The notes below the pieces were generated by a model. That model did not search any database, was not told the origin of the DNA, and saw nothing but the letters and a program-made list of their open reading frames with translations. DNA of 64,000 bases from positions 138,386,001 to 138,450,000 of the forward strand of contig CM059431.1 in NCBI GenBank assembly GCA_030390025.1, written 5' to 3'. Shown here one piece after another: positions 5,020-38,360 of this stretch. Made by a program: the position numbers and the translations under genes. Source of the DNA: Squalus acanthias (lineage: Eukaryota). The stretch's first letter is position 1. Each line of letters opens with the position of its first letter.

Positions 5020-7790
5020 ATCGCATCGGCCGCCCCTACACTCCCCGCCTGATATTCAGTCACATTATCGGCCCCTACATTCCCCGCCTGATGTTTAGTC
5101 CCATTATCGGCCGCCCTACACTCCCTGCCTGATATTCAGTCCCATTATCGGCCGCCCTACACTCACCGCCTGATATTCAGTCCCATTATCGACCCCTACA
5201 CTCCCCGCCTGATATTCAGTCCCATTATCGGCCCCTACACTCCCCGCCTGATATTCGGTCCCATTATCGGCCCCTACACTCCCCGCCTGATATTCAGTCC
5301 CATTATCGGCCCCTACACTCCCCGCCTGATATTCAGTCCCATTATCGGCCCCTACACTCCACGCCTGATATTCAGTCCCATTATCATCCCTACAGTACCC
5401 GCCTGATATTCAGTCACATTATCGGCCCCTACATTCCCCGCCTGATGTTTAGTCCCATTATCGGCCCCTACACTCCACGCCTGATATTTAGTCCCATTAT
5501 CGGCCGCCCTACACTCCCTGCCTGATATTCAGTCCCATTATCGGCCACCCTACACTCACCGCCTGATATTCAGTCCCGTTATCGGTCGCCCTACACTCAC
5601 CGCCTGCTTTTCAGTCCCATTATCGGCCCCTACATTCCCCGCCTGATATTCAGTCCCATTATCGGCCCCTACACTCCCCGCCTGATATTCAGTCCCACTA
5701 TCGGCCCCTACACTCCCCGCCTGATATTCAGTCCCATTATCGGCCGCCCTACACTCACCGCCTGATATTCAGTCCCGTTATCGGTCGCCCTACACTCCCT
5801 GCCTGATATTCAGTCCCATTATCGGCCGCCCTACACTCACCGCCTGATATTCAGTCCCGTTATCGGTCGCCCTACACTCACCGCCTGATATTCAGTCCCA
5901 TTATCGGCCCCTACATTCCCCGCCTGATATTCAGTCCCATTATCGGCCCCTACACTCCCCGCCTGATATTCAGTCCCATTATCGACCCCTACACTCCCCG
6001 CCTGATATTCAGTCCCATTATCGGCCCCTACACTCCCCGCCTGATATTCGGTCCCATTATCGGCCCCTACACTCCCCGCCTGATATTCAGTCCCATTATC
6101 GGCCCCTACACTCCCCGCCTGATATTCAGTCCCATTATCGGCCCCTACACTCCACGCCTGATATTCAGTCCCATTATCATCCCTACAGTACCCGCCTGAT
6201 ATTCAGTCACATTATCGGCCCCTACATTCCCCGCCTGATGTTTAGTCCCATTATCGGCCGCCCTACACTCCCTGCCTGATATTCAGTCCCATTATCGGCC
6301 ACCCTACACTCACCGCCTGATATTCAGTCCCGTTATCGGTCGCCCTACACTCACCGCCTGCTTTTCAGTCCCATTATCGGCCCCTACATTCCCCGCCTGA
6401 TATTCAGTCCCATTATCGGCCCCTACACTCCCCGCCTGATATTTAGTCCCATTATCGGTCGCCCTACACTCCCCGCCTGATATTCAGTCCCACTATCGGC
6501 CCCTACACTCCCCGCCTGATATTCAGTCCCATTATCGGCCCCTACACTCCCCGCCTGATATTCAGTCCCATTATCGGCCCCTACACTCCACGCCTGATAT
6601 TCAGTCCCATTATCATCCCTACAGTACCCGCCTGATATTCAGTCACATTATCGGCCCCTACATTCCCCGCCTGATGTTTAGTCCCATTATCGGCCGCCCT
6701 ACACTCCCTGCCTGATATTCAGTCCCATTATCGGCCACCCTACACTCACCGCCTGATATTCAGTCCCGTTATCGGTCGCCCTACACTCACCGCCTGCTTT
6801 TCAGTCCCATTATCGGCCCCTACATTCCCCGCCTGATATTCAGTCCCATTATCGGCCCCTACACTCCCCGCCTGATATTCAGTCCCACTATCGGCCCCTA
6901 CACTCCCCGCCTGATATTCAGTCCCATTATCGGCCGCCCTACACTCACCGCCTGATATTCAGTCCCGTTATCGGTCGCCCTACACTCACCGCCTGATATT
7001 CAGTCCCATTATCGGCCCCTACATTCCCCGCCTGATATTCAGTCCCATTATCGGCCCCTACACTCCCCGCCTGATATTCAGTCCCATTATCGACCCCTAC
7101 ACTCCCCGCCTGATATTCAGTCCCATTATCGGCCCCTACACTCCCCGCCTGATATTCGGTCCCATTATCGGCCCCTACACTCCCCGCCTGATATTCAGTC
7201 CCATTATCGGCCCCTACACTCCCCGCCTGATATTCAGTCCCATTATCGGCCCCTACACTCCACGCCTGATATTCAGTCCCATTATCATCCCTACAGTACC
7301 CGCCTGATATTCAGTCACATTATCGGCCCCTACATTCCCCGCCTGATGTTTAGTCCCATTATCGGCCGCCCTACACTCCCTGCCTGATATTCAGTCCCAT
7401 TATCGGCCACCCTACACTCACCGCCTGATATTCAGTCCCGTTATCGGTCGCCCTACACTCACCGCCTGCTTTTCAGTCCCATTATCGGCCCCTACATTCC
7501 CCGCCTGATATTCAGTCCCATTATCGGCCCCTACACTCCCCGCCTGATATTCAGTCCCACTATCGGCCCCTACACTCCCCGCCTGATATTCAGTCCCATT
7601 ATCGGCCCCTACACTCCCCGCCTGATATTTAGTCCCATTATCGGTCGCCCTACACTCCCCGCCTGATATACAGTCCCACTATCGGCCCCTACACTCCCCG
7701 CCTGATATTCAGTCCCATTATCGGCCCCTACACTCCACGCCTGATATTCAGTCCCATTATCGGCCGCCCGACGCTCCCCGCCTGATATTG
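5020..7790. repeat. 39/41-bp minisatellite (about 70 units) with higher-order blocks
   Basis: Unit cactccccgcctgatattcagtcccattatcggccccta (39 bp) with a 41-bp variant ...cggccgcccta. Confidence 0.97.
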
Positions 7791-8101
7791 AGCTCCATTA
7801 GCTTCACTAGAATTGAATATGAAGCGGCGGGTACAACAGGCAGCCGATGCGATAGAGCCCCTGTAGAGCTGACCTCCAAGAGGAATTTGTACACATGAAT
7901 TTGAATTTCGGTAGATGTTCTAAACGACCGATGTGGAATTAGCTGCCTGATTTTCCTTAAAATTGAATGGAAAGGGATGGAAAATCGGATGCAGACTTTA
8001 ACAGGCGGCTGTTTCGATTGAGCCTCTGATCCTCTTCCAATATTGCGGTGGGATATTTAGTGTCCACCGGGGAGGGCAGGCGAGGCAACGATTTAACATC
8101 T

Positions 8102-9102: not shown

Positions 9103-9172
9103 ATGCCCCCGGTGATGACCCTCACATTCCTGCTCTTCAGTGCCTCGTACCCGGCAACATCCCAGCAATGCA
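9103..9172 (+). CDS. Exon 1, transcobalamin/intrinsic factor-family gene (signal peptide)
   Basis: acaATG; MPPVMTLTFLLFSASYPATSQQC, a hydrophobic signal-like stretch followed by the family's N-terminal Cys; donor A|gtaagt, phase 1, in frame with exon 2. Confidence 0.8.
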
Positions 9173-9254
9173 GTAAGTGCGATTTGTTGTTTAGTGCCCA
9201 ATGTTTAATCTAAACCTGATCTTTATCGTTTAGCTGAGTTTTTATCGTAATTTA

Positions 9255-9960
9255 GAATCATAGAATTATAGAAACTTAGAATCTTATAGTACAGAAGGAG
9301 CCCATTCGGCCCATCGTACCTCTGCCTGCTCTTTGAAAGTGTAATTAGTCCCAGTCACCCTGCTCTTTCCCCAAAGCCCTGCATTTTTCTCCCCTCAAGA
9401 ACACATCCAAACCCCTTTTGACAGTTACTATAGAAGATGCTTCCAGCACCGTTTCAGGGAGTGCATTCCAGACAGCAACAACATCGCTGCATTCAAAAAA
9501 TCTCCTCATTTACCCTCTGGTTCTTTTGCCAATTACCTTAAATCTGTGTGATCGCCATGCTCCTGCCAGTGGAAGAAGTTTCTCCTTATTTACTCTATCA
9601 AACACCTCCATAATATTGATCACCTCTATTAAATCTCCCTTTAATACTCTCTGCTCTAAGGAGAACAACCCCAGCTTGTCTAGTCTCTCCACATAACTGA
9701 AATCTCTCATCCCTGCCAGCATTCTGGTAAATCTCCTCTGCACCCTCTCCAAGGCCTTGACTAAAGTTTGTTGCCCAGAATTGGACACAATGCACTAACT
9801 GAGGCATGACTAATGATTTATAAATGTTTGCCACAAATTCTTTGCTTTTCTACACTGTGCCTCTATTTGGAAAGCCAAGGATCCCGTCATTTTTTTAAAG
9901 ATTTGTCAATAAGTCCGTCCACCTTCAAAGATTTGTGAACGTGAACCCGAGGTCTCTCTC
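9255..9960 (-). mobile_element. CR1 LINE 3' fragment (intron 1)
   Basis: ORF 9510-9788(-) LERVQRRFTRM...LGLFSLEQRVLKGDLIEV. Confidence 0.85.
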
Positions 9961-10281
9961 TTCCTGCGCCCCGAATACACTTGTACTATTTGCTTTCTAT
10001 TACCTCTCCTCATTCCTCTTTCAAATTGCACCATTTCAGCTTTTTCTGCATTGAATGTCATCTACAATGTGACTGCCCATTGCACCAGTCTGTCTGTGTC
10101 CTCCTGAAGTCTGCTACTATCCTCCTCACTGTTTACTACAATACATGTTCTTACTGTATGTTCATATGTTATGTTCACCGGCCACATGCGCCTTCTGATT
10201 ATCCTCAAGCTCTTTAAGTGTTACTGCTATCTTAATGTTCATTACTCGCGAGTGGATTAATCATTGGGTTGTGGATTCCAG

Positions 10282-10464
10282 CGGCTCCAGATAATCAGCA
10301 GAAATCACTTCTCCGGAGTATAGAGAGGAAACTGAGTGATCTGTCCGTGGAGCCAGACCCCGGGGCTTTCATTGCCCTGCGCCTGGGGAGTGAGCATGAT
10401 CTGCAGAGTGAACAAGACATTCTCCGAAGGCTGAGTGAGGCGGCTGTTAGAAAGGTTGGATCAG
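10282..10464 (+). CDS. Exon 2, transcobalamin-family alpha domain
   Basis: ttccag| acceptor, G|gtaagg donor, 183 nt, phase 1-1; DPGAFIALRLG resembles the NPSIxxxLRL motif. An alternative in-phase acceptor lies 9 nt downstream. Confidence 0.85.
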
Positions 10465-11136
10465 GTAAGGAGTCAACTATTAGGTAATGTGGATGTATCT
10501 GGATTAAATCTTTATTACTGTTGACAGGATGAGTGGCTGGCAAACTATTGTTAATGAAGGAAATTTGAATCTAGGAATGGCCCCATGATAATAGTGACCC
10601 AACTTCTAGCCCGTTCATGTCGTATTGCTATGTTTGACATCAAAACGTAACATTTGAGATAGAGTTTAAGTGTAATTTGAGACTTTACACATGGTCAGTG
10701 TAGCGTGCTTGGGAGGAACAGGTGATTTTGGACCTATGGTTCACAAAGCTCTCCAGCACCGCCTCGTGTCTGTGTCTGTTGTAAACTAATTTATAGGGAC
10801 TGATTACTATGATTATACAACAACCCCATTGTCATGCGACTACAAGGATAGTAGAAGCAGAATTAGATGCACCTTGGTCTTCAGTCTCCCCAGAAATTCC
10901 AATGTTCCGAATAGAGGATTTCGTCCATTTAAAATAAACAGGGTCATTTAAAAATAACAGCGAATATGACTGTCGATGGCGCCTATTTTGTGAGAGCCAA
11001 TGTTGAAAGTTGACACACCTCATGCAATTCTACATCTTTTCCCCAGTGCAGTTCACTTTATTACAGTCTACAATTTCACAACCATTTGAATCAGGATCCC
11101 AGGAATTAACTTGCAGCAATGTGCCATTGAAGTTTC

Positions 11137-11352
11137 TGTATATGTTTGCGTGTGTTTGTGTGTATATGTTTATGTGTGTGTGTGTTTCAATGTTTCTTTG
11201 TGTATATCTTTCTGTGGGTTTCTTTGCGATTGTGTGTGTGTATGTCTATGCGTTTCTGTGTGTCTCTGCTTCTGTATGCATATGTGTTTATGTGTGTGTA
11301 TACGTATCTGTTTGTGTTTATATGTGTATGTGTGTGCATATATATCCGAGTC

Positions 11353-11385
<33 letters not shown>

Positions 11386-11460
11386 TTGAGAAAGAGAAAG
11401 AGTGAGATGGAGAAAGAGGGAAACAGACACATACAGAGGAAGATGAAGAGAGGGAGGGAG
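11137..11460. repeat. Degenerate (TG)n followed by purine-rich (AG)n microsatellite
   Basis: Seen directly; explains the spurious Cys/Val- and His/Thr-rich ORFs here. Confidence 0.95.
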
Positions 11461-12383
11461 GGAGACTTCTCGCTGGAATTCTGCCCTCAGGTGAATGGGC
11501 CGAGCTGACATTTATTGCACCACCTTTGTTCCTGATACTATGATGGGAATTTTAGCAGCTCTAAACATTCCCTTGTTCTTCCACCTGAACCCTATATCCC
11601 CCATCCTGCACGGTGGTTCTGCTTCTTACTCTCTCGTTGTTTTGAAATCAGAAATCATTACACTGTCCCCTGCTCGAAATTGCATTAGCTGCCCTTTTAC
11701 ACCACGCTTCATTTTCCTTTCCAATGGAGGTGAAAATCGGGCGGGATCTTTAATCGGCGGCCTAATCGGAGTCGCCTATTTTACAACATCGTTTAAATCT
11801 AAAATTATCCCCAGAATCTTTTCTTGTGGAATTTGAAGATGACACGGCTTTATTGGAACAAGAAGGGAGAGTGCTGCCAGGGTCTTGGCCAACATTTATT
11901 CCCCAGCTAACACCTAAAGTAGTTTAAAGAGAGAGGAGAGTGAAGGGGAAGAAACTTACATTTCTCTTGTGCAGTTGTTTCACAGCCAATGAAATGCGGC
12001 CACTCTTCTTTCATAGACAACCTCGACAACCAATTGGACACAAGATGCCACAAGTACCAATGAGATACATTACCAGTTAATCCATGTACCGTGTCGCTGG
12101 TTAAGAATTTAGAACTGGTTACCTGGCTATTCACTTCTTTGCTGTTTGTGGGATATTGCTGTCCACAAAATGGCTCCAGAATTGGTCGATATAACAAGGG
12201 TGTCTGCACTTCAAATAATTTATTACACGTGAAGCACTTTGAGTCGTTTTTGAGAGTTAAAATGAGGTGGAATATTAATACAAGTCTTCAGAGTGTAGAG
12301 GAGGGATTTATAATCACAAACCAGTTAGGTATTGATGTACCCAGTCAGAACAAACTGAATCTCGTTTGTTCCTCTGCCGCCAG

Positions 12384-12554
12384 GTGAACACTTCCGCATA
12401 GACCAGTTGGTTTTCTACATCTTAGCCTTCAGATCCTCTTGTCGGAACTCAGCCAAGATATCAGCAGAGAACAAGGAGGTGAATTTGGTGGAGGTGCTAC
12501 GTGAGAGGCTCTACAGTGAACTGCATCAAATACCTAGGATAACAACTTCTAAAG
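12384..12554 (+). CDS. Exon 3, transcobalamin-family alpha domain (absent from ORF track)
   Basis: ttgttcctctgccgccag| acceptor, G|gtaagt donor, 171 nt; GEHFRIDQLVFYILAFRSSCRNS...NLVEVLRERL matches the GQLALYxLALRxxC / LVxxL motifs. Confidence 0.9.
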
Positions 12555-12634
12555 GTAAGTTTCGACTCATGCTTTAGGCATGTTATTTGCACAGAGATTG
12601 AGATGCATCTTTCAGCAAACACAAGCTGAAAACC

Positions 12635-14290
12635 ACCAATCACACTCACATCTCTGTCTGTACCTCTCTCCATAACCAGGAATCACACTCACATCTCAGT
12701 CTGTACCTCTCTCCATAAACTTCAATCAAACTCACATCTCAGTCTCTACCTGTCCCCATAACCAGGAATCACACTCACATCTCAGTCTGTACCTCTCTCC
12801 ATAACCTCCAATCACACTCCCATCTCAGTCTGTACCTCTCTCCATAACCAGGAATCACACTCACATCTCAGTCTGTACCTGTGCCCATAACCTCCAATCA
12901 CACTCACATCTCAGTCTGTACCTCTCTCCATAAACAGGAATCACACTCCCATCTCAGTCTGTACCTGTCTCCATAACCTCCAATCACACTCACATCTCAG
13001 TCTGTACCTCTCTCCATAACCTACAATCACAGTCACATCTCAGTCTGTACCTCTCTTCATAACCAGGAATCACACCCCCATCTCAGTCTGTACCTGTCCC
13101 CATAACCACCAATCACACTCACATCTCAGTCTGTACCTCTCTCCATAAACAGGAATCACACTCCCATCTCAGTCTGTACCTGTCCCCATAACCTCCAATC
13201 ACACTCACATCTCAGTCTGTACCTCTCTCCATAAACAGGAATCACACTCCCATCTCAGTCTGTACCTGTCCCCATAACCTCCAATCACACTCACATCTCA
13301 GTCTGTACCTGTCTCCACAACCTCCAATCACACTCACAGCTCAGTCTGTACCTGTCCCCATAACCTCCAATCACACTCACATCTCAGTCTGTACCTGTCC
13401 CCATAACCTCCAATCACACTCACATCTCATTCTGTACCTGTCCCCATAACCTCCAATCACACTCACATCTCAGTCTGTACCTTTCTTCATAACCTCCAAT
13501 CACACTCACATCTCAGGCTGTACCTGTTCCCATAACCTCCAATCACACTCACATCTCATTCTGTACCTGCCCCCTTAACCTCCAATCACACTCACATCTC
13601 AGTCTGTACCTGTCCCCAAATCTCCAATCACACTCACATCTCAGTCTGTACCTCTCTCCATAAACTCCAATCACACTCACATCTCAGTCTGTACCTCTCT
13701 CCATAACCTCCAATCACACTCACATCTCAGTCTGTACCTCTCTCCATAACCTCCAATCACACTCACATCTCAGTCTGTACCTCTCTCCATAACCAGGAAT
13801 CACACTCCCATCTCAGTCTGTACCTCTCTCCATAACCTCCAATCACACTCCCATCTCAGTCTGTACCTGTCCCCATAACCTCCAATCACACTCACATCTC
13901 AGTCCATACCTCTCTACATAACCTCCAATTACACTCACATCTCAGTCTGTACCTCTCTCCATAACCAGGAATCACACTCCCATCTCAGTCTGTACCTGTC
14001 CCTATAACCTCCAATCACACTCACATCTCAGACTGTACCAGTCCCTATAAACTGCAGTCACACTCACATCTCAGTCTATAACTGTCGCTGTAACATCCAA
14101 TCACACTCACATCTCAGTCTATAACTGTCGCTATAACATCCAATCATACTCACATCTCAGTCTGTAACTTTCGCTATAACATCCAATCACACTCACATCT
14201 CAGTCTGTACCTGTCCCTCTAACCTCCAATCACTCTCACATCTCAGTCTGTACCTGTCCCTATAACCTCCAATCACACCCAATCTGTATC
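12635..14290. repeat. 43-bp intronic minisatellite
   Basis: Unit aatcacactcacatctcagtctgtacctctctccataacctcc. Confidence 0.97.
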
Positions 14291-14377
14291 TCCCGCCATA
14301 ACCTCCAGCCTCATTCTCACCTCATTCTGCTTTAATCGCAACAATTTCCGGTTCTATTCCCATAACAGTCGGCGGCT

Positions 14378-14650
14378 CCCCATAACCTCCAATCCCACTG
14401 CCTTCTCAGTTCATAACTGTCCCTGTAAACACCAATAGAATTACTTTCACAGTTTGTATCTCTCCCCATAACCTCCAATCCCACTGCCTTCTCAGTTCAT
14501 ACATGTCCCTGTAAACACCAATAGAATTAATCTCACAGTTTGTATCTCTCCCCATAACCTCCAATCCCACTGCCTTCTCAGTTCATACATGTCCCTGTAA
14601 ACACCAATAGAATTACTCTCACAGTTTGTATCTCTCCCCATAACCTCCAA
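14378..14650. repeat. 86-bp tandem repeat (3 units), diverged dimer of the 43-bp unit
   Basis: cataacctccaa recurs at 14381, 14467, 14553 and 14639. Confidence 0.85.
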
Positions 14651-14879
14651 ACACATTAAAGTGCAAATATTTATCCAGCACTTTTTAGAAGAACCAATTG
14701 ACTCCAGGCCTAAAGGGAATTGGAATGCTGACTCCTGGTTTATAAAGGCAATGATTTATGATTATATCCGTGAAATAAACCATTGTAGCATGTATTTATT
14801 CATCTATTATTATCTATGTTATTTATCAAGAAAGGCTGGTCTCGCTGGGGCTCTTTCATCTGGAAAAGAGATGATTGAG

Positions 14880-15570
14880 AAGTGAGCTAACAGAGCTCTT
14901 TAAAATGATGAAGTGTTTCTACAGGGTAGAAGTAGAGTAGATGTTTCCACTTGTAGAGGAGATTATAATTAGGGACCATAAATATAAGGTAGTCGATACT
15001 TCTTCTTTCGTATGGTAGTAGCAAAGCAAATCCAATGTCAATATCTAAATCAGATATCAATGCCAAAAATTCCAGTATAACAGCGTGGATTTCTTACAAC
15101 GAAGGTTCACCAGACTGGTTCCTGGGATGGGGGGATTGTCCTATGACGTCTGATTGACTAGACTAGGACAATATTCTCTAGAGTTTAGAAGAATGAGAGA
15201 TGATCTAATTGAAACATACAACATTCTTACAGGGCTTGACTGGGTAGATGTAGGGAGGATGTTTCCCCTGGCTGGGGAGTCCAGAACCAGGGGTCACAGT
15301 CTCAAAATAAGGGGTCTGCCATTTAGGACTGAAATGAGAAGAAATGTCTTCACTCAGAGGGTGGCGAATCTTTGGAATTGGCTGAGTCGTTGAGTACATT
15401 CAAGACAGAGATCGATAGATTTTTGAATATTAAGGGAATCAAGAGATATGGGGATAATGCAGGAAAGTTGAGATGAGGTAGATGTACAGCAAAAATCTTA
15501 TTGAATTGTGGAGCAGGCTCGAAGAACCAAATGGCCTAATCCTGCTCCTATTTCTTATGTTCTTATTTAT
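14880..15570 (+). mobile_element. CR1 LINE 3' fragments
   Basis: ORF 15154 YSLEFRRMRDDLIETYNILTGLD...FRTEMRRN; tail cctgctcctatttcttatgttcttat. Confidence 0.85.
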
Positions 15571-15589
15571 GCTGCCTACGAATTTCCTC

Positions 15590-16025
15590 TGAGGGCAGTG
15601 CAAATGCTGTTCTCCAGGGTCTGATTAGGAGCTTCACAGTCTGCCTCATGATGGGGATGTTTTAATCTTCCATCTAATTAGAAGGTGGCGACCGGTTCTG
15701 AGGCGGTTGATGGTTGTCCACTGTTTGCGAGGAAGGTTTGATCCTTCAGGTTGTACTCTGGGATCCTCTATAAGCAATCCATTCCGTACGTCACAACGTT
15801 TCCAAGCATTTCGCCATCAGTCATCAAGGCTGAGGGGAGATCGCTGAAGGGCTTTGGCGACGGTCCAATATAGCCTTCTAGATTAGAGACGGTTTGGTGC
15901 TAGATTGTTCAAGTCGGCCTGGATTGGCATGTCTTTGCTGGTGTAGCGGTTGTATTCTATGGACACTGCATATTCGCGGCTTAGGTGTGGTGGTGTGATG
16001 TTTGCAAGCACGGGCAGCCAAGGTG
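15590..16025 (-). mobile_element. C-terminal fragment of a non-CR1 LINE (I-group/Vingi-like)
   Basis: Minus strand reads WLPVLANITPPHLSR and WTTINRLRTG...W...DCEAPNQT, resembling the C-terminus and Zn-knuckle of such elements; clade assignment from memory. Confidence 0.5.
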
Positions 16026-16559
16026 TTGGTGTCGATAAAATCGTACTGGTGATAATTCTCATAGTAGAATTCAGCTGGACATCATCGGATTTGTCATGTG
16101 TACTTGATAGCCATGCCGGAGAGCATTAGTCCGCTGTAGATTCACTACTAAAAAACAATGGGGGATTCAGGAGAAACTTATTTTCCCGAAGAGTGGCGAG
16201 AATGTGGAAATTGCTAACACATGAGAAGTTGAGGCGAATTGTATAGATGTATTTAAGGCGAAGTTAGACAAGTTCATGAGGGAGAAAGGAATAAGCTCCC
16301 TCGGGTAAGCTGCTCGACTGAGATGAAGTAAGGTAGGAGGAGGCTCATGTGGAGCATAATTAGACCTGTTGGGCCGAATAGCCTCCTTCTGTGCTGTAAA
16401 TTCTACACCAATTCTATTTATTCATTTAAATCCTTGGCCTGATTTCTGGCACGCAGAGAGGATCGGGGACGAACTAGTGAGGAATTCTCAAATCTGTTGC
16501 TCCCGTTTGTCAGATGTGGAGCATATCACTAAGATTGGAGACTGTCACTGTATTTACAG

Positions 16560-16715
16560 AAAACGCTGGATATGCTCTAAAGGCCTTTACTGAAGCCAGC
16601 CTGGCGATCCTGGCGCTGTGTCAGGAGGAGGAACTTGTCCCGGGCTTTCTCATTCATAATTTCATCCGGGCTCATCTCAGGAAGATCGCTCATCACGGGA
16701 AAGAATTAACAGTAG
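16560..16715 (+). CDS. Exon 4, transcobalamin-family alpha domain
   Basis: tatttacag| acceptor, G|gtatgt donor, 156 nt; ASLAILALCQ matches the xLxILALC motif; ends LTV, leading into the D-T of exon 5. Confidence 0.9.
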
Positions 16716-16756
16716 GTATGTCTGAGCAGACAAGATGTTTCATTTTATAGTTTCAA

Positions 16757-18345
16757 AAATATCCATTTGATGGAGTTTTTAAAGAGGTTACCTGGGTTCA
16801 CAGGTTATGGTCGGTGAAGATATCCATTTGATGGAGTTTTGAAAGCGGTTACCCGGGGGGTTCAGAGGTTACGGTTAGTGAAGATATCCATTTGATGTAG
16901 TTTTGAAAGAGGTTACCTGAGTTCACAGGTTACGGTCGGTGAAGATATCCATTTGATGGAGTTTTAGAAAGAGGTTACCGGGGTTCACAGGTTACGGTCG
17001 GTTAAGATATATATTTGATGGAGTTATAGAAAGAGGTTATCTGGGTTCACAGGTGACGGTCAGTGAAGATATCCATTTGATGCAGTTTTGAAAGAGGTTA
17101 CCTGTGTTCACAGGTTACAGTCGATGAAGATATCCATTTGATGGAGTTTTGAAAGAGGTTACCTGTGTTCACAGGTTACGGTCGGTGAAGATATCCATTT
17201 GATGCAGTTTTGAAAGAGGTTACCTGTGTTCACAGGTTACGGTCGGTGAAGATATCCATTTGATGGAGTTTTGAATGAGGTTACCTGGGTTCACAGGTTA
17301 CGGTCGGTGAAGATATCCATTTGATGGCATTTTGAATGAGGTTACCAGGGTTCACAGGTTACGGTCGATGAAGATATCCATTTGTTGGATTTGTAGAAAG
17401 AGGTTACCGGGGATCACAGGTTATGGTCGGTGACGATATCCATTTGATGGAGTTTTGAAAGTGGTTACCTGGGTTCAGAGGTTACGGTCGATGAAGATAT
17501 CCATTTGATGGAGTTTTGAATGAGGTTACCAGGGTTCACAGGTTACGGTCGGTGAAGATATCCATTTGATGGAGTTTTGAATGAGGTTACTGGGGTTCAC
17601 AGGTTACGGTTAGTGAAGATATCCATTTGATGGAGTTATAGAAAGAGGTTACCGGTGTTCACAGATTACAGTCAGTGAAGATATCCATTTGATGCAGTTT
17701 TGAAAGAGGTTACCTGGGTTAACAGGTTACGGTCGGTGAAGATATCCATTTGGTGGAGTTTTGAATGAGGTTACCTGGGTTCACGGGTTACGATTGGTGA
17801 AGATATCAATTTGATGGAGTTCTGAAAGAGGTTACCTGTGTTCACAGGTTATGGTCGGTGAAGATATCCATTTGGTGGAGTTTTGAAAGAGGTTACCTGG
17901 GTTAACAGGTTACGATTGGTGAAGATATCCATTTGATGGAGTTTTGAATGAGGTTACCTGGGTTCACAGGTTACGCTTGGTGAAGATATCCATTTGATGG
18001 AGTTTTGAATGAGGTTACCTGGGTTCACAGGTTATGGTCGGTGAAGATATCCATTTGATGGAGTTCTGAAAGAGGTTACCGGGGTTCACAGGTTACGGTC
18101 GGTGAAGATATCCATTTGATGCAGTTTTGAAAGAGGTTACCTGTGTTCCCAGGTTACGGTCGGTGAAGATATCCATTTGATGGAGTTTTGAATGAGGTTA
18201 GCTGGTTTCACGGGTTACGGTCGGTGAAGATATCCATTTGATGCAGTTTTGAAAGAGGTTACTGGGTTCACCGGTTACGTTTGGTGAAGATATCCATTTG
18301 ATGGAGTTCGGAAAGAGTTTACTTGCGTTCACCGGTTACGATTGA
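16757..18345. repeat. 61-bp intronic minisatellite
   Basis: Unit atatccatttgatggagttttgaaagaggttacctgggttcacaggttacggtcggtgaag, about 26 copies. Confidence 0.97.
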
Positions 18346-18828
18346 TGAAGAGTGCTGGGAGGGAGTCCATTGGACACCGGTTGTGAGGAAAATGATGGGA
18401 AATTTGGGAAGCATCTCTTCATCCATGGGTGATCGGATCGCTTGTGCATAGGAGGCTTCGGATATCATAGAATCATCTAAACTTATAGAAGGAGGCCTGT
18501 CGGCCAATCGTACCTGTGGTGGCTCTTTGAAATAGCTCCCCAATTAATCCCACTCTCCCTTCTCTTTCCCCATAGGCCAGAACCCTGTATTTGTATCCTT
18601 ATCAAGTATATATCAAATTTCCTTTTCAAAGTCACCATTGAATCTGCTTCCATCACCCGTTCAGGCAGTGCATTCCAGATTATAACAACTCCCTGTGTAA
18701 AGAAACAAAAATGACTCCCCATCTCCCCTCAGATTCTTTTGCCAATATCGTACATCTGTGTCCTCTCGTTACCGACCCTCCTGTCAAATTTACTCATGAA
18801 CCGATGGTAATTGTTTCCTGTGTTGTAG

Positions 18829-19004
18829 ATACAATGGCCACCGCGGCACTTAGTCTGAGGTGTTTATTACACTCGCAACAACCAAGAGGCAGATCTCGGC
18901 TTGACATCGCAAAGGCTTTAATGTGGATAATGAGGCGGATTCTAAGTGAAGTGAGAGAGGACGGGACCATTGGGAGCTTGAGCAGTACAGGGCTGGCCAT
19001 GCAG
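18829..19004 (+). CDS. Exon 5, transcobalamin-family alpha domain
   Basis: ttcctgtgttgtag| acceptor, CAG|gtattg donor; DTMATAALSLRCL...ILSEVREDGTIGSLSSTGLAMQ matches VDTxAMAxLAxxC and GxxGNxYSTGLAMQ. Confidence 0.92.
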
Positions 19005-19944
19005 GTATTGTGATGTGAAATTAGAAAATAGGATTCTGATTTAATTAGAGCTAAGGGCAGTTAGTAATTAACAGCTTCTTCACAACATATTAAGCGATAG
19101 ACCTTAAACAATTAGAGCATAGAAACGATTTTGCAGTATTGGTGTATCGGTGTTTAATGTGTTCAGATGACGTTCAGTGTGAAGTATTGCAAGTAGTGGA
19201 AGATTCTGAGACACCTCGATATCTTTCATGGGATAGAACTCGCCAGGAGCGGAGGGCATTGGTTAAAATAGATTTAAGGGATGATTTTAACTTTTGGTGA
19301 AGGTGTAAAATGGGTAATATCCAATTGCTCTTCAATTTACAGGCGCCAGATTTTACCTTCCATGGATTCAATGCAAAGGAAAATCGGGCATGGTATACAA
19401 TGGCCGGTTAATTCAAAATTGGCCATTGTACATCATCGCTCACAGTTAAAGTAATCACAACAGAATGCGAATGATTCAATGTTCATCAAATCAATACACT
19501 GAAGTGGCGATAAACAATGTAAACAGGATGTTGAGTTATATTGAGAAACTGGTTGACTTCAAATTCCAAGAGGACAATCTTTAAATGGAATGTTCAGTAC
19601 AGAAACAGGTCATTCGTGTGTTTGTGGGCCACACGAGGCTCCTCCCGCCCTACTAACCCTATCACCATATCCTTCTATTCCTTTCTCCTTCATATATATT
19701 TCCCTTAAATCAATCTTTGTTATTCGCTTCCTATGCTACTCCTTGTGATAGCGAGTTACAACTTCTATCCACTCTCTAGTGAAGAAGTTTCTCCTAAATT
19801 CCTTGTTGGGTTTATGAGTGGCTATCTTATATGTATGGACCCTAGTTTTGGACTCACCCTGCAAGTGGAGACATCTTCTCTACGTTTACCTTATGAAATC
19901 CATTCATAATTTTGAAGAGCTCTTTTAGTTTACCTTTCAGTAAT

Positions 19945-20660
19945 AGAATCATAGAGTAATAGATTCATAACGGCACAGAACGAGGCCATTCGGCCCATCG
20001 AGTCCAATCCGGCTCTCTGTAGAACATCCAGTCAGTCCCATTCCCCCGCTCCATCCCCGTAGCCCTGCAAGTTTATTCCATCAAGTGCCTACCCAGTCTC
20101 CCCGTGAAAGCATTGAGTGTCTCCGCTTCCACAACTTTCGTCGGCAGCGAATTCCAGGTCTTCGCCACTCGCCGCATAAAAAATGTTTTTCCTCACATCC
20201 CCCATTGTACCTCTTGCACAAAACCTTAAATCTTTGTCCCCTAGTCCTTGTACCATCAACTAGTGGGATAAGCCTTTCCCCGTCTAGCCTATCCAAACCC
20301 GTCATAATCTTGTAAATCGCCATCAAATCATCCCTCAACCTCCTTTGCTCTAATGAAAACAAATCCAACTTCTCCAAACTGTCCTTGTAGCTAAGATACC
20401 CCATCCCCGGAACCATTATGGTAAATCTCCTCTGCATTCTCTCAAGGTCCTTCATATCCTTCCTAAACTGTGGTGACCACAACTGGATGCAACACGCCAG
20501 TTGTGGTCTAACCAGCGCTTCAAAGAGGCTGAGCATAACTTTTCTACTTTTCTACTCAATACCTTTATTTATGACATTGGCATTGCTAACCACTCTCTCA
20601 ATATGTCCTGCCACCTTCAGGGAACTATGACATTAACTCCCACGTCCCTGGGTCACTGCA
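19945..20660 (-). mobile_element. CR1 LINE 3' fragment (intron 5)
   Basis: ORF 20081-20536(-) ALVRPQLACCIQLWSP...FSLEQRRLRDDL. Similar tail fragments at 18465-18790 and 19590-19940. Confidence 0.85.
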
Positions 20661-20845
20661 CACTCTTTAAGGTGTAAAACGGGTGATGGCGAATCTGCAG
20701 CCCGATCTCTCCCGATTTTTATTTCCATTCAATCCCACTTTATATTACGGTGCTTTGAAACAGAGTTCATATGTGCTCAGACTAAATGATCTCCGGATCA
20801 TTAAAATTAAAAATTAAAATTAGTGTTACTTTCTTTACACTGCAG

Positions 20846-21038
20846 GCCCTGGACGAAAACATAAACGTGTTCACCTCACGTGTCTATAATTGCACCAAAT
20901 CTGTGCAGAAAATGGTGCATGAAATTTCTCGGGGAAACTGGGAAAACCTTACAACAATGTCACAGGTGGCGATAGCCCTGGGAGGAAAAAGTTACCTGGA
21001 CGTGAACAAGATAACCTGTCCTGTATATAAAGGGAAGG
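20846..21038 (+). CDS. Exon 6, end of transcobalamin-family alpha domain
   Basis: ttctttacactgcag| acceptor; ALDE...YNCTKSV...GNWENLTTMSQVAIALGGKSYLDVNKITC matches the GxFxNxxxxxQxxPxLxGKTYLDV..xC motif. The donor G|gtacag is weak but gives the phase 1 needed for exon 7. Confidence 0.85.
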
Positions 21039-21071
21039 GTACAGCAACAGACCGGACTAAGTATGGGGGAC

Positions 21072-21250
21072 GGTGAAATTCGACATTGGCCAGTTCGCAA
21101 AACGTACGGTGTTGCATCAGGTGTCCGATATCCGCTCCCCCCCATATTCGGTCCCATTGACTTCAAAAGAACTGGATATCGGGCGTGTCCATAATGGTTG
21201 GTGAGAGCGATTCCTCCTGTCTCGCGTCCCCATCCTTATCGAATTTCACC
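21072..21250. mobile_element. Palindromic MITE-like element
   Basis: Perfect 12-bp terminal inverted repeat ggtgaaattcga/tcgaatttcacc with an internally self-complementary body. Confidence 0.65.
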
Positions 21251-22263
21251 ACGCCTCTCAGCTTTAAGAACTCCCTAGGAGGGGTTAATAAGGGAGAATG
21301 TGGCGGGAAGGTTACACGGCCCGAACAAAAACTGCAACGAAAATAACGGAAGGAAAATTGGGCAGGTTTCGTTCCCAGAATGCAAAGCTCAGCTCCAGAA
21401 TTTCCTGGATGCGCTGCTCCCAGGCTGTACAGATGGGAAGCTACTCACATTGGGTTAGGAATCAAAATGAAGAAGAAATAGCAAATGAAAATGAATCCTG
21501 GAAGGATAGAGTGTAGAATTAGGCCATTCGACCCATAGTGCCTGTGTCGGCGCTTCGAAAGAGCAATCCAATTAGTTCCAGTGCCCTGCCCTCTCCCCAT
21601 AGCCCTGCAGTTTTCCTCTATAAATATTTATCCAAATCCCCTTTGAAAGTTACTATTAAATCTGCTTCCACCCCACTTTCAGTCAGTGCATTCCAGATCC
21701 TAACAATTCATCATTGTTAGTTTTAAATCACTGTCCAGTTTCATGATATTTTCTCCTGGGTATTTGCCAGGAGCACTGAAGCGGGGATTTTACCCATTCA
21801 ACCCTTGACCTTCCTGAATCCTTTATGTTTGCTCAGTTTTCTCAGCGAAAAAATTGGAAGCCCTGAGCCATCTGCTTGGCCTCACTCCCAACGGGAGGTT
21901 CACCAATGTAGATATCCTCAGGGATCTTCACATATGACAATGGTCACATTAACTGGAATGCAGAGCTGGTTTGTGCCTGAGCTCCACTTTTCACAGGCGC
22001 TGATTTTGAGCGTGTCTCTAGAAGTTGTGGGTGAAATTGGATAAGTGCAAAGGCGCAAAACAGGCGTTATGTCATCGGTCTCCCGTTTCTTTCTTTATAA
22101 ACCCCGATATTCATTCCACTATTTCCAACAGAACCGGATATCAGGCGTGTTGCAAAACGGCTGGCAAATGCGATTCTCCCTGTTTTCCATCTTTGCCCAA
22201 GTCCAACTTTACTGCCCGTTGCCTCCCATGATCTTTTGACATTGTTTCTCCTACTTCGCACAG

Positions 22264-23108
22264 TGACAACTATGACCAGAGCGCATTCCGCGACCAATGG
22301 GCTGCCGACGCTCACCGAATCCCAGAATCCACTTTCTCTCAACTCCAGGATTGTGAACCACCGCATCAAAAGTACAACCACGTCCATGAGAAGTTCAACT
22401 GCTCCTCGATCGCCCATTCACCCTGCATCAATGGAAACCTCCTCTTCACTTGGTAGAGTAGGTCCACACCCCAGTTCAACAGCACAGCCTCCAACTTCTA
22501 CAGCATCCTTAGGGGCTTTCAGTTTATCCACAATTATGGATTCTTGGATCAGTGCGATTGTGCCCTTCATGACCAGTGTGACCATTCCTATCGTGACCAG
22601 TACGATGGCACCCGTCATGAACAGTGCGACTGTGCCCATCGTGACTAGTGAGACTGTACCCACCGTGACCAGTGAGACTGTGCCCATCGTGACGAGTGAG
22701 ACTGCACCCATCGTGACCAGTAAGACTGTACCCATCGTGACCAGTGAGACTGTGCCCGCCGTGACCAGTAAGACTGTACCCATCGTGATCAGTGAGACTG
22801 TGCCCATCGTGATCAGTGAGACTGTGCCCATCCTGACCAGTGAGACTGTGCCCGCCGTGACCAGTAAGACTGTACCCATCGTGATCAGTGAGACTGTGCC
22901 CATCGTGACCAGTGAGACTGTACCCATCGTGACCAGTGTGACTGTACCCATCGTGACCAGTGAGAATGTACCCATCGTGATCAGTGAGACTGTGCCCATC
23001 GTGACCAATGAGACTGTACCCATCGTGACCAGTGAGACTCTGCCCATCGTGACCAGTGAGACTGCACCGATCGTGACCAATGAGACTGTACCGATCGTGA
23101 CCAGTTAG
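22264..23108 (+). CDS. Exon 7 open portion: Ser/Thr/Pro-rich mucin-like tail with 8-aa repeats (VTSETVPI), ending at a TAG
   Basis: Pyrimidine-rich acceptor ttgtttctcctacttcgcacag|, phase 1, in frame with ORF 22236-23108. Spliced CDS 70+183+171+156+176+193+845 = 1794 nt = 597 aa + stop. Confidence 0.7.
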
Positions 23109-24200
23109 ACTGTGCCCATCGTGACCAATGAGACTGTGCCCACCGTGACCAGTGAGACTTTGCCCATCGTGATCAGTGAGACTCTGCCCATCGTGAACAG
23201 TGAGACTGTGCCCATCGTCACCAGTGAGAATGTGCCCATCGTGACCAGTGAGACTGTGCCCATCGTGACCACTGAGACTGTGCCCATCGTGACCACTGAG
23301 ACTGTGCCCATCGTGACCAATGAGAATCTGCCCATCGTGACCAGTGAGACTGTGCCCATCGTGACCAATGAGAATCTGCCCATCGTGACCACTGAGACTG
23401 TGCCCATCGTGACCAATGAGAATCTGCCCATCGTGATCAGTGAGACTGTGTCCATCGTGACCAGTGAGACTGTGCCCATCGTGACCAATGAGACTGTGCC
23501 CATCGTGACCACTGAGACTGTGCCCATCGTGACCACTGAGACTGTGCCCATCGTGACCAGTGAGACTGTCCCCATCGTGACCACTGAGACTGTGCCCATC
23601 GTGACCACTGAGACTGTGCCCATCTTGACCACTGAGACTGTGCCCATCGTGTCAGTGAGAATCTGAACATCGTGACCACTGAGACTGTGCCCATCGTGAC
23701 CAGTGAGACTGTGCCCATCGTGACCAGTGAGACTGTGCCCATCGTGACCAGTGAGACTGTGCCCATCGTGACCAATGAGAATCTGCCCATCGTGACCAGT
23801 GACACTGTGCCCATCGTGACCGGTGAGACTCTGCCGATCGTGACCAATGAGACGGTGCCCATCGTGACCAATGAGACGGTGCCCATCGTGACCGGTGAGA
23901 CTCTGCCCATCGTGACCAATGAGACGGTGCCCATCGTGACCGGTGAGACTGTGCCCATCGTGACCAATGAGAATCTGCCCATCGTGACCAGTGAGACTGT
24001 GCCCATCGTGAACAGTGAGACGGTGCCCATCTTGACCGGTGAGACTGTGCCCATCGTGACCAGTGAGACTCTGCCCATCATGACCAGTGAGAATGTGCCC
24101 ATCGTGACCACTGAGACTGTGCCCATCGTGAGCAGTGCGAGTGTGCCCAGACTGACCAGTGAGACTGTACCTATCGTGAGCAGTGCGAGTGTGCCCAGCT
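22560..24200. repeat. 24-bp coding-type tandem repeat
   Basis: Unit gtgaccagtgagactgtgcccatc. Confidence 0.95.
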
Positions 24201-24419
24201 TGTCCAGTGCGAATGTGCCTCCGTCTTCCAACAAGGTAAAGGCACCATCATCGACCTAAAACAACAATGTGTTTCCACCCTCCCTGACAGGTAGAACCAT
24301 GCAACAGTCATCAGCTGTCACTATGAGACCAATGCTGCTTCCGGCTTTACATTCAGCATTGACATTAACTTTTGCGGTGTCTAAAAAATCCAAGGTCAGT
24401 GCTAGAGTCCGTTCATCAT

Positions 24420-24960
24420 CTATAAAGCAGACTACTCCATCCCAGGTGAATACAGCACCATCGACCTCTATAAATCAGACTACACCATCCCAGGTCAATA
24501 CATCACCATCATCGTCTATAAAACAGACTACACCATCCCAGGTCAATACAGCGCCATCATCATCTATAAATCAGACTCCACCATCCCAGGTCAATACAAC
24601 ACCATCATCATCTATAAATGAGACTCCACCATCCCAGGTCAATACAGCACTATCATCATCTATAAAGCAGACTACTCCATCCCAGGTGAATACAGCACCA
24701 TCGACCTCTATAAATCAGACTACAACATCCGAGGTCAATACAGCACCATCATCGTCTATAAAGCAGACTACACCATCCCAGGCCAGTACAGCACCATCAT
24801 CATCTATAAATCAGACTACACCATCCCAGGTCAGTACAGCACCATCATCATCTATTAATTAGGCTACACTATCCCAGTTCAGAATAGTACCACTCTCATC
24901 CACTAATCAGGCTACAGCACTCCAGATCAGTATTACAGCACGTTCATCATCTCTAAGTCA
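24420..24960. repeat. 48-bp coding-type tandem repeat (QTTPSQVNTAPSSSIN)
   Basis: Seen directly; ORF 24269-24862. Confidence 0.9.
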
Positions 24961-25089
24961 GGCTACATCATTCACAGGCCAGTAGAGAAGCAGCTTCATC
25001 ATCTATTGATTCGGATACATCATCTCTCAATTTCAATAGCACCTCACTATATTTCAGCATAGATTCTTCTTCCCTGATGAGAAGAATAG

Positions 25090-25740
25090 CACCTTCACCA
25101 TCTTCTAAATCAGATACATCTTCTCTGGTCAGTTCAATAACACCTTTACCATCTACTAAATAAGATACACCTCCTCTGGTCAGTACAATAACACCTTCAC
25201 TATCTACTAAATCAGATACATCTTCTCTGGTCAGTACAATAACACCTTTACCTCTACTAAATCAGATACATCTTCTCTGGTCCGTACAGTAGCACCTTCA
25301 CCATCTACTACATGAGATACATCTTCTCTGGTCAGTACAATAACACCCTCACCATCTACTAAATCAGATACACCTACTCTGGTCAGTACACTAGCACCTT
25401 CACCATCTACTAAATCAGATACATCTTCACTGGTCAGTACAATAACACTCTCACCATCTATTAAATCAGATACAGCTTCTCTGGTCAGTACAATAACACC
25501 CTCACCATCTACTAAATCAGATACATCTTCTCTGGTCAGTACAATAACACCCTCACCATCTAAGAAATCAGATACATCTTCTCTGGTCAGTTCAATAGCC
25601 ACTTCACCATCTACTAAATCAGATACATCTTCTCTGGTCAGTACAATAAGACCCTCACCATCTACTAAATCAGATACATCTTCTCTGGTCAGTACAATAA
25701 CAATCTCACCATCTACTAAATCAGATACATCATCTCTGGT
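25090..25740. repeat. 51-bp coding-type tandem repeat (STKSDTSSLVSTITPSP)
   Basis: Unit tctactaaatcagatacatcttctctggtcagtacaataacaccctcacca. Confidence 0.9.
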
Positions 25741-26224
25741 CATATCAACCTGTGTAGCGTCATTAGTGATACCAATAACTGTTACAGAAGAATCAATTCC
25801 CCAAGTATTTAGGTTAAATATGCCATTACCTTTTACACATTTAACAAGTGCATCATTGCTACCAAATTGACACAATACCCTGAATGGATTGGGCGTGTTC
25901 GGATTTTCAGAGTCTGATTTATAGGTCGATAGGTATTTGAAATAAACTATTAGTTTCTCCTTATATAACCAAAGTTTCAGTATTGAAATACAACATGATA
26001 AACTATATTAAAATAAAATATCACCGTTTAACGATGGCGTGCATTGTCTTCTTGGCAGTAAAAGAAATGTCATTCAGTAGATTATTTGCCATTTTTTTAG
26101 AATGGGTTTCTAAATAATTAATGTTGCAATAGGAAGACAAAAAAGAAAAAAACATCTATTGCTATAATTGTGAAGTTAAACCAGAATTGCTACAAACATT
26201 CAGCATCTGTGGATACACAGACAC

Positions 26225-33930: not shown

Positions 33931-34324
33931 TTGTTTTCAATGATTTAAGAACTTGAAATTCTGAATCCCATGCTCCACTACAGTTTCTAGCTTAATAGCC
34001 TTTAGAATATACTCCGAGTTATCTTTCTTGGTTTATTGTGGATGATTCACACTTGCTGACATTTAACACCATTTGATATAGTTTTGCTAACTCATTTAAT
34101 CTTTCTATGTCTCTTTGTAATTTCTCGATCTTAGTGGCACTACTTACGCTTCAACCTAACTTAGTGTCATTTTCAAACTTGGATACATGGCGGTCTATTC
34201 TTTCATTGAAGTCATTAATAAATATGGTGAAAATGTCAGGCCCCAGTACAGAAACCTGGGAGTCAGCACTTTTCACAAAGGAATGTTGGAATCGGATCTA
34301 TACCAGAATTTTAGTGTATGGACA

Positions 34325-37300: not shown

Positions 37301-37535
37301 CACCAATAATGTTAGATTAGCGTCCCCAACAGTAATGTTAGAGTAGGATCCTCAGCAGTAATGTTAGAGTAGCGTCACCAGCAGCAATGTCAGGGCAGGC
37401 ACACCACCAGTAATTTTAGACACCAGCAGTAATGTTAGAGTAGAGTAAACACCAGTACTGTTAGTGTAGAGTCAACACCAGTAAAGTTATATTAGTAGCA
37501 CCACGAATAATGTTAGAGTTGGGTCATTACCATTA
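34325..37535. repeat. 26-bp satellite, block 1
   Basis: Consensus accaccagtaatgttagagtagggtc; diverged edges, homogeneous core at about 35280-35640. Confidence 0.96.
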
Positions 37536-38360
37536 GTCCTCTATCTCTAATTACACAGTTACTGTGTTCCCCTAAATTACCCTGTCCTCTATCTCTAATT
37601 ACACAGTTACTGTGTTCCCCTAAATTACCCTGTCCTCTATCTCTAATTACACAGTTACTGTGTTCCCCTAAATTACCCTGTCCTCTATCTCTAATTACAC
37701 AGTTACTGTGTTCCCCTAAATTACCCTGCCCTCTATCTCTAATTACACGGTTACTGTGTTCCCCTAAATTACCCTGTCCTCTATCTCTAATTACACAGTT
37801 ACTGTGTTCCCCTAAATTACCCTGTCCTCTATCTCTAATTACACAGTTACTGTGTTCCCCTAAATTACCCTGTCCTCTATCTCTAATTACACAGTTACTG
37901 TGTTCCTCTAAATTACCCTGCCTCTCTCTCTAATTACACAATTACTGGGTTCCCCTAAATTACCCTGCCCTCTATCTCTAATTACACGGTTACTGTGTTC
38001 CCCTAAATTACCCTGTCCTCTATCACTAATTACGCAGTTAATGTGTCCCCTAAATTACCCTGTCCTCTATCTCTAATTACAGTTACTGTGTTCCCCGAAA
38101 TTACCCTGTCCTCTATCACTAATTACGCAGTTAATGTGTCCCCTAAATTACCCTGTCCTCTATCTCTAATTACACAGTTACTATGTTCTCCTAAATTACC
38201 CTGTCCTCTCTCTCGAATTACACAGTTACTGTGTTTCCCTAAATTACCCTGTCCTCTATCTCTAATTACACAGTTACTGTGTTCCTCTAAATTACGCTGT
38301 CCTCTCTGTCTAATTACACAATTACTGTGTTCCCCTAAATTACACAGTCCTCTGTCTCAG
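37536..38360. repeat. 48-bp tandem repeat directly 5' of the CR1 ORF1
   Basis: Unit gtcctctatctctaattacacagttactgtgttcccctaaattaccct, about 17 highly similar copies. Confidence 0.95.

Follow-up and report, generated by a model that had tools for sequence, protein, structure and literature searches.

A 64,000-nucleotide stretch of the Squalus acanthias genome (G000:C7:138386001-138450000, on C7, a chromosome-scale contig of a 3.7-Gb genome) was analysed, and the whole of it is called the window here. Its forward strand carries a gene of the transcobalamin/intrinsic factor/haptocorrin family, in which TCN1, TCN2 and CBLIF hold vitamin B12 between an alpha and a beta domain. Our preferred reading of the sequence, held with moderate confidence, is that the gene is one copy of an elasmobranch branch of this family that has no beta domain, and that its product would be a secreted, mucin-like protein whose head no longer clamps B12. 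The gene is modelled with seven exons. Exons 1 to 6 would encode a signal-peptide-like start and a complete alpha domain of the alpha6/alpha6-barrel type, and exon 7, joined in phase 1, would add 8-residue units rich in Thr, Val, Ser, Pro and Ile, followed in intact copies by 16-residue units rich in Ser, Thr and Pro. Such a product would be secreted, heavily O-glycosylated and N-glycosylated at NET sequons, with the alpha barrel as the globular head of a mucin-like molecule, and this head has most likely been put to new use, binding another partner in a mucosal or secretory fluid.

The first six exons have canonical AG/GT sites and mutually consistent phases (1, 1, 1, 1, 0, then 1), and their spliced product is 316 amino acids long. 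Exon 1 (9103-9172) contains the ATG, a signal-peptide-like start (MPPVMTLTFLLFSASYPATSQQC) and the codon of Cys23, and reaches its donor, GTAAGT, in phase 1; the MPPVMTLTFLLFSASYPATSQQC start matches the N-terminal hydrophobic stretch and first cysteine of the family's alpha domain and probably acts as a signal peptide. Exons 2, 3 and 4 all run from phase 1 to phase 1. Exon 2 (10282-10464, 183 nucleotides, AG/GTAAGG sites) covers positions 21-81 of the Pfam profile PF01122; exon 3 (12384-12554, 171 nucleotides, with CAG/GT... and AAAG/GTAAGT boundaries) encodes Cys104; exon 4 (16560-16715, 156 nucleotides) encodes Cys162 and has KAFTE where the family has TNYYQ. Exon 5 (18829-19004, 176 nucleotides, phase 1 to 0) encodes Cys205 and an STGLAMQ motif, and exon 6 (20846-21038) encodes Cys268 and Cys310. 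The usual exon 6 donor of the gene family, AAG/GTAAGG, would end this exon at 21032. In the window copy its GT is mutated to GG, and the exon ends 6 nucleotides downstream at a weak donor, G/GTACAG; both donors are in phase 1.

The identity of the alpha domain was established against relatives from other species. Word-based protein searches returned one relative and otherwise the queries themselves, so that an all-against-all HMMER search was needed; run on 1.84 billion representative sequences, it gave 86 proteins, or 95 with cluster members added. A hidden Markov model (HMM) of the alpha domain, with 313 positions, was built for this purpose from 39 family members of 405-460 amino acids. The 316-residue product spans positions 6-310 of the 313 (305 positions) with 238.5 bits and an E value of 4.3e-75, and PF01122 matches exons 2, 4, 5 and 6 individually (E 4e-4, 2e-3, 2.5e-12 and 9.4e-11). 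Cysteines 23, 104, 162, 205, 268 and 310 occupy the six conserved cysteine columns of the family alignment. The disulfides reported for rat transcobalamin join 21-268, 116-310 and 165-208 (PMC11107200), and by analogy the window product would have three alpha-domain disulfides paired in the same way. The nearest relative, P0001, is a 330-residue alpha-only model from Mustelus asterias named 'cobalamin binding intrinsic factor-like'. The window alpha domain is 71% identical to it over 292 columns (66% in exon 2, tblastn E 1.5e-19; 79% in exon 5), and exon 3 matches it at a tblastn E of 4e-15. The structure model of P0001 (predicted local distance difference test 85.3, predicted template modelling score 0.84) has intrinsic factor, haptocorrin or transcobalamin as all of its 14 best listed PDB matches (E 1e-10 to 7e-8, template modelling score 0.65-0.71). 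The earlier note on this DNA, made from the letters alone, had proposed six in-phase exons giving a signal-peptide-like start and a complete alpha domain with six cysteines, and the splice sites, the HMM and the cysteine columns all agree with it. Haptocorrin (TCN1), intrinsic factor (CBLIF) and transcobalamin (TCN2) share with the window family the complete alpha6/alpha6-barrel alpha domain, the three conserved disulfide pairs and the secretory start. They differ from it in their beta domain (PF14478), their TNYYQ motif and their interdomain linker, whereas the window family, with at least 13 copies, has no beta domain, has lost TNYYQ, and fills the place of the linker with tandem repeats that amount to between hundreds and about 1,900 residues.

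The absence of a beta domain was examined with several searches. When the 95 family proteins were compared with the 64-kb window by tblastn, no beta region found a match; outside the alpha exons, the only matches at E < 0.01 were between repeat tails and the repeat arrays. The same type of search recovered beta exons at two canonical loci of the same genome, with E values down to 9e-14. A beta HMM, self-built from 38 of the 39 proteins used for the alpha HMM, was run over 7,745 six-frame open reading frames (ORFs) from the window, 12 paralog stretches and three canonical loci. The five ORFs that it matched all belong to two of the canonical loci (E 7e-15 to 3e-5). It matched nothing in the window, with its 43 kb of downstream sequence, or in the 10 kb downstream of the 12 paralogs. 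Across the whole genome, the Pfam profile DUF4430 gave a single weak match (E 2.9) and was replaced by a protein query and our own HMM, since it is too short for an exon-wise search. The beta-domain protein query gave six matches, on contigs C1824, C474 and C13, adjoining canonical alpha exons, and none on C7. All six lie on contigs that also bear canonical alpha exons, so that this candidate-limited search revealed no beta gene standing alone. The failure of the earlier note to see a beta-domain-like exon in the remaining 38 kb is thus borne out, with working positive controls. A conventional two-domain carrier gene, with beta exons that escaped detection or are located outside the window, is largely refuted and barely credible. 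Introns in this genome are long, and a canonical locus on C12 also showed no beta exon within 10 kb, both of which would suit such an arrangement. Against it, the HMM that found nothing downstream of the window gene or its paralogs scored 7e-15 and 1.7e-14 at canonical loci, C7 has no beta match anywhere, and a phase-1 acceptor with a repeat exon sits where the linker should be.

The second feature that sets the gene apart from the known carriers is its altered B12 site. A quick tree (SH-aLRT, Shimodaira-Hasegawa-like approximate likelihood ratio test, supports; the careful tree search is unfinished) unites the window gene with Mustelus P0001 and a model from the electric ray Narcine bancroftii, XP_069792302.1, at an SH-aLRT of 100%. 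TNYYQ is described as the alpha-domain motif that forms hydrogen bonds with the corrin ring (PMC4350170). It, or a near form, is present in most of the aligned canonical two-domain sequences, P0010 and P0014 departing further. At this position the alignment has KAFTE in the window (none of five residues identical), KTFNE in Mustelus and KVLTE in Narcine, and the neighbouring S-S/T-G contact stretch reads I-D in all three clade members. Judged by the alignment, the window clade has lost the corrin-contact motif. Because the gene has no beta domain and has KAFTE instead of TNYYQ, the head most likely no longer clamps cobalamin. CD320 is reported to touch only the alpha domain of transcobalamin (PMC4947154), and therefore an alpha domain can serve alone as a protein-binding surface.

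The earlier note had offered three conceivable roles: a mucus component, action in trans with a free beta-domain protein, and a receptor decoy. A very unlikely alternative is that the head is still engaged in B12 handling, assembling in trans with a beta-domain protein and cobalamin and so tethering B12 in mucus, either for capture or for withholding it from microbes. Separately expressed alpha and beta domains of human transcobalamin are described as assembling, and only upon addition of cobalamin (PMC5599065), isolated domains are reportedly able to bind cobalamin (PMC11107200), and beta-only transcobalamin-like proteins are reported from teleosts (PMC4350170, PMC7918649). However, the human alpha domain is said to contain no bound cobalamin when purified (PMC5599065), no free-standing beta gene turned up among the candidates in this genome, and the loss of TNYYQ and of the adjoining stretch throughout the clade argues against a clamp in trans. 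The teleost proteins (DUF4430-only, TCNL) resemble the window family in that one half of a two-domain carrier survives as a secreted protein of its own. In the teleosts it is the beta domain, with its cobalamin-binding residues, that is kept, while the window family is their mirror image, with the alpha domain kept and the contact motif lost.

Exon 7 opens at a phase-1 acceptor (TCGCACAG/TG, 22263/22264), which agrees in phase with exon 6. Its first part (22264-22549, forward strand) is non-repetitive and rich in Ser, Thr and Pro, and is followed on the same strand by three tandem arrays. Array 1 (22550-24219) has 69.6 copies of a 24-bp unit with the consensus ETVPIVTS, array 2 (24413-24971) has 11.6 copies of a 48-bp unit encoding about SSSINQTTPSQVNTAP, and array 3 (25085-25742) has 12.9 copies of a 51-bp unit that, if coding, would give about TKSDTSSLVSTITPSPS. 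An AATAAA is found at 25941. Ser, Thr and Pro make up 46% of the window tail and 42% of the 1883-residue tail of one paralog, Val and Ile account for 26-30%, and NET sequons are numerous in the window tail. No Pfam family was found in the first tail ORF of 335 amino acids, the ORFs of arrays 2 and 3 gave only sub-threshold, chance-level matches to unrelated families, and the translated tail frames have no Cys-rich part. The tail accordingly differs from gel-forming mucins of the MUC2 type, which have Cys-rich VWD/C8/TIL and cystine-knot domains for polymerisation. The phase-1 acceptor and the AATAAA had both been pointed out in the earlier note and were found again, the repeats being rich in Thr, Val, Ser and Pro. 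The single exon open to 25870 that the note implied does not exist in the window copy. A TAG at 23106-23108 (GAG to TAG within a repeat unit) closes the spliced tail frame after 281 codons. Beyond it the frame is open for another 185 codons, until a 1-nucleotide deletion near 23651 leads to a TGA at 23664-23666. Array 2, which in intact paralogs is in frame with array 1, is out of frame with exon 7 here and has stops at 24860-24862 and 24983-24985, and the Ser/Thr/Pro frame of array 3, which ends at 25870, differs from that of array 2. A 76-nucleotide GT..AG interval lies at 24982-25057 (CA/GTAGAG ... TATTTCAG/C); its removal would drop the TAG at 24983-24985 and link the array 2 frame to the Ser/Thr/Pro frame of array 3.

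The window copy is one of many. A whole-genome search with PF01122 found 13 exon 5/exon 6 pairs of the window subtype, eight on C7 at 137.85-143.73 Mb and five on unplaced contigs. The family therefore has at least 13 recent paralogs, the window copy included, although the copies on unplaced contigs may partly be haplotigs. With 90-93% identity, all 12 other copies match the window from exon 6 to the arrays inclusive, the arrays themselves differing greatly in length, and the order of exon 6, intron, exon 7 and repeat array is kept in every one of them. In 10 of the 12 paralogs both intron 6 sites are kept, always together: the AAG/GTAAGG donor and the acceptor AG with its pyrimidine tract. 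From the exon 7 acceptor, the spliced tail frame is open for 1883, 1385, 1366, 1073, 1026 and 784 codons in six paralogs, for 582, 409, 313 and 310 codons in four, and for 61 and 5 codons in the remaining two, compared with 281 codons in the window copy. Five of the 13 copies thus have a tail frame of 1026-1883 codons. The alpha exons were compared in six copies, namely the window copy and five of the 12 paralogs with upstream exons, and exons 3-6 are intact in all six. Their pooled ratio of nonsynonymous to synonymous variation per site (pN/pS) is 0.40, and it is 0.21-0.47 for the pairs with pS above 5%. Exon 6 diverges by 2.6%, about half as much as intron 6 (4.9%), and the unique part of exon 7 by 4.3%. 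By its pN/pS, the alpha domain is under purifying selection over the deeper splits of the family. The proposal of an alpha-only module on a stalk therefore stands in part. The layout, the splice sites and the long frames in the paralogs, together with the Narcine model, speak for it, but the tail frame of the window copy is broken, and the earlier note had missed that the family is multi-copy.

The lesions of the family raise the question of whether the window copy makes anything at all. This copy is damaged: its strong exon 6 donor is lost and its tail is cut to 281 amino acids by a TAG. At best it yields a short-tailed or alpha-only product, and pseudogenization may be under way. Several other observations weigh against our preferred reading in the same sense. 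Seven of the 13 copies, the window copy among them, have their tail frame cut within 5-582 codons. Two copies, L018 (G000:C3500) and L020 (G000:C1065), have an intron 6 donor changed from GT to TT and an acceptor changed from AG to AT, and are probably sister pseudogenes. One copy has a frameshift in exon 6, one has Cys23 replaced by Tyr, and one has an exon 2 that lacks its 3' end. In the alpha exons, pN/pS is about 1 between the closest copies. A real possibility, though short of an even chance, is then that the window copy is a pseudogene in a birth-and-death family, so that the architecture exists in sister copies while nothing functional comes from the window; the destroyed donor, the TAG and the frameshift near 23651, the clear lesions in sister copies and the pN/pS of the closest copies all favour it. 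On the other side, the six alpha exons of the window copy are intact, with canonical sites and all six cysteines, an in-phase cryptic donor lies only 6 nucleotides past the lost one, and a tail of 281 residues would still be a substantial mucin-like stalk. This possibility overlaps with our preferred reading of a beta-less, mucin-like branch and is compatible with it.

A different doubt concerns the repeats themselves. The arrays may be noncoding, minisatellites of a 3' untranslated region or of intergenic DNA, and the gene may encode a short secreted alpha-only protein of about 320-330 amino acids whose frame either reads on into intron 6, to a stop at 21074-21076, or closes a few codons into exon 7. 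We regard this as fairly unlikely, but several observations favour it. In the unique part of exon 7 pN/pS is 1.03, and among 1,473 repeat units it is 1.3, with most of the variation at codon position 2, so that neither the unique part nor the units show amino-acid-level constraint by this ratio. Minus-strand frames of the arrays are open for up to 1568 codons, and copies with an early stop have another 1362-1525 open codons past it. Since such frames are equally open, ORF length is a weak sign of selection, and the open array frames are partly a by-product of a stop-poor unit. Nor does it help much that the unit lengths of 24, 48 and 51 bp are divisible by 3, because the region is unusually rich in tandem arrays and two others in the window (39 and 48 bp) share this property. 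The nonsense codon and the frameshift in the window tail fit noncoding arrays as well. So do the sister-clade models that end at the alpha domain and the Mustelus model, which ends two residues past the exon 6 junction, its last aligned residue before the stop being the junction Val.

The evidence for a coding tail comes from the splice sites and the reading frame. The acceptor and its pyrimidine tract are kept in 10 of the 12 paralogs, and always with the donor. The spliced frame is the only forward-strand frame without a stop in the consensus unit, and it stays open for up to 1883 codons across the unique part, array 1, a junction and array 2. The 13 copies show no indel in the 283 nucleotides of the unique part, against seven in the 1225-nucleotide intron. 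At the single position of the unit where G to T creates a stop, this change is the rarest among the unit's seven G positions (4 occurrences against 7-42). The lack of indels and the rarity of the stop-creating change are weak signs that the tail frame has been kept. The 627-residue tail of the Narcine model, with its similar V-P-x-V-T motif, also speaks against noncoding arrays.

Of five sequencing runs, all with an RNA type that is only guessed, two contain any of the stretch, with 5-9% of the sampled words, and four were compared with positions 18700-22560. The exon 6-7 junction is not among the joints listed from these runs, none of which is on record as RNA, and this also counts against our preferred reading. 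Interspersed repeats in introns 5 and 6 account for most of the run depth, and in the listed joints repeat is joined to repeat. Two records are of interest but were not counted as evidence. One, from run X1 (record 8, 153 letters, no differences) is continuous over the acceptor (22125-22277) and is therefore genomic or unspliced. The other, record 16 of run X2 (193 letters, depth 2.6), matches 22262-22362 with two differences, the fit ending exactly at the acceptor. Low depth over the exon 5 and exon 6 bins is seen in X2 and in no other run. A spliced exon 6-exon 7 contig from a paralog would suit this.

Among the 95 relatives, our beta HMM found a beta domain in 61 and none in 34. The next nearest relative, after the Mustelus protein, is the Narcine model XP_069792302.1, an automatic prediction of 993 amino acids named 'mucin-2-like', a name that reflects only the composition of its tail. 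Its alpha domain (68-366) is followed by a tail of 627 residues rich in Ser, Thr, Pro and Val, and it has no beta domain. It thus resembles the window family in the alpha domain (49% identity to the Mustelus relative), in the type of tail, in the loss of TNYYQ and in its place in the tree, but its tail is made of longer, degenerate repeats while that of the window has crisp 8-residue units. The tail matches array 1 of the window at a tblastn E of 1e-12. Its Smith-Waterman score against the window array is 206, compared with 83 +/- 12 for shuffled sequences, none of 200 reaching it, with a z value of 10.4 where an unrelated repeat control gives 5.1. No similarity to the Narcine tail is seen in the unique part of exon 7 (z 1.1-2.0). 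When other long proteins with an alpha domain and a tail were searched for, the Narcine model was the only one. A hypothetical protein of 442 amino acids from Chiloscyllium punctatum, P0048, consists of an alpha fragment resembling exons 2-3 (49% identity to P0001) and a tail rich in Thr, Ser, Pro and Val, with a match to the window array at an E value of 1e-6. This model is probably a faulty prediction at a related bamboo shark locus. P0009 (Heterodontus francisci, 'cobalamin binding intrinsic factor-like', 450 amino acids) may be an intermediate toward the repeat tail.

The sister group of the window clade (SH-aLRT 91) consists of beta-less models from Pristiophorus and stingrays. Both groups fall into a weakly supported, chondrichthyan-rich group (SH-aLRT 86) with a little skate 'transcobalamin 1', an elephant-shark TCN1-like protein and one long-branched lungfish row. 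The alpha-only models of Pristiophorus japonicus, Hypanus sabinus, Hemitrygon akajei and Cetorhinus maximus resemble the window family in that, as predicted, they comprise the whole alpha domain but lack a beta domain. As annotated they have no repeat tail and keep a TNYYQ-like motif (TDFYQ, TDYDQ, TDYHQ), in contrast to the repeat tail and KAFTE of the window family. The Pristiophorus, Hypanus and Hemitrygon models stop right past the alpha domain, which keeps a short alpha-only product in play for the window family too and weakens the case for a tail. Complete alpha domains without a beta domain occur outside the window clade in P0020 and P0095 (the amphibian Leptobrachium), P0034 (the lungfish Protopterus), P0007 (Cetorhinus), P0005 and P0091 (stingrays) and P0004 (Pristiophorus), all of them gene predictions only. 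In its accessible text, a 2014 survey of chondrichthyan binders describes only two-domain carriers, all three skate carriers being of this type (PMC4350170). In the literature searched, no paper was found on an alpha-only or alpha-plus-mucin member of the family, or on XP_069792302.1. The earlier note knew of no described vertebrate protein of this build, and had itself named an already annotated family as a point that would tell against it. The first part holds as far as papers go, but the automatic 'mucin-2-like' annotation in Narcine touches the second.

The rest of the window contains further repeats and gene remains. Intron 3 has minisatellites at 12631-14650, with units of 43 and 86 bp that are not multiples of 3, and intron 4 has one with a 61-bp unit at 16759-18351. 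Outside the gene, large minisatellites lie at 5032-7800, 34302-38358 and 61308-64000, with units of 39, 26, 48 and 26/52/78 bp. Fragments of a long interspersed nuclear element are found on the forward strand at 40477-42517, with endonuclease/reverse transcriptase matches (PF14529 and RVT_1, PF00078). About 29 kb downstream of the mucin-like gene, at 54513-55460 on the same strand, a galactosyltransferase domain of the B3GALT/B3GNT type (PF01762) is divided among overlapping ORFs whose frames differ (E 2.8e-19 and 2.7e-15). It has the appearance of a single-exon glycosyltransferase gene or pseudogene with a frameshift.

To our knowledge, every described vertebrate B12 carrier clamps the vitamin between its alpha and beta domains, and we know of no earlier description of an alpha domain that stands without a beta domain, is joined to a mucin-like stalk and exists in 13 or more copies. 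Should the family prove not to be expressed, it would be a young family of decaying duplicates that matters for annotation only, and model names such as 'mucin-2-like' and 'intrinsic factor-like' would mislead. If it is expressed, it would clearly illustrate how a domain can be lost and a vitamin-carrier fold then put to new use, and would offer a natural test of what an alpha domain can do alone. The boldest view, which we consider unlikely and which would give vertebrates their first alpha-only family member with its own function, is that elasmobranchs have remodelled one half of the B12 clamp as a mucosal protein of a new kind. An alpha barrel on a glycosylated stalk, in a dozen fast-changing copies, would then either take up beta-domain-bound corrinoids in trans, as a tethered split clamp for capturing or withholding B12, or recognise an entirely new ligand or receptor.

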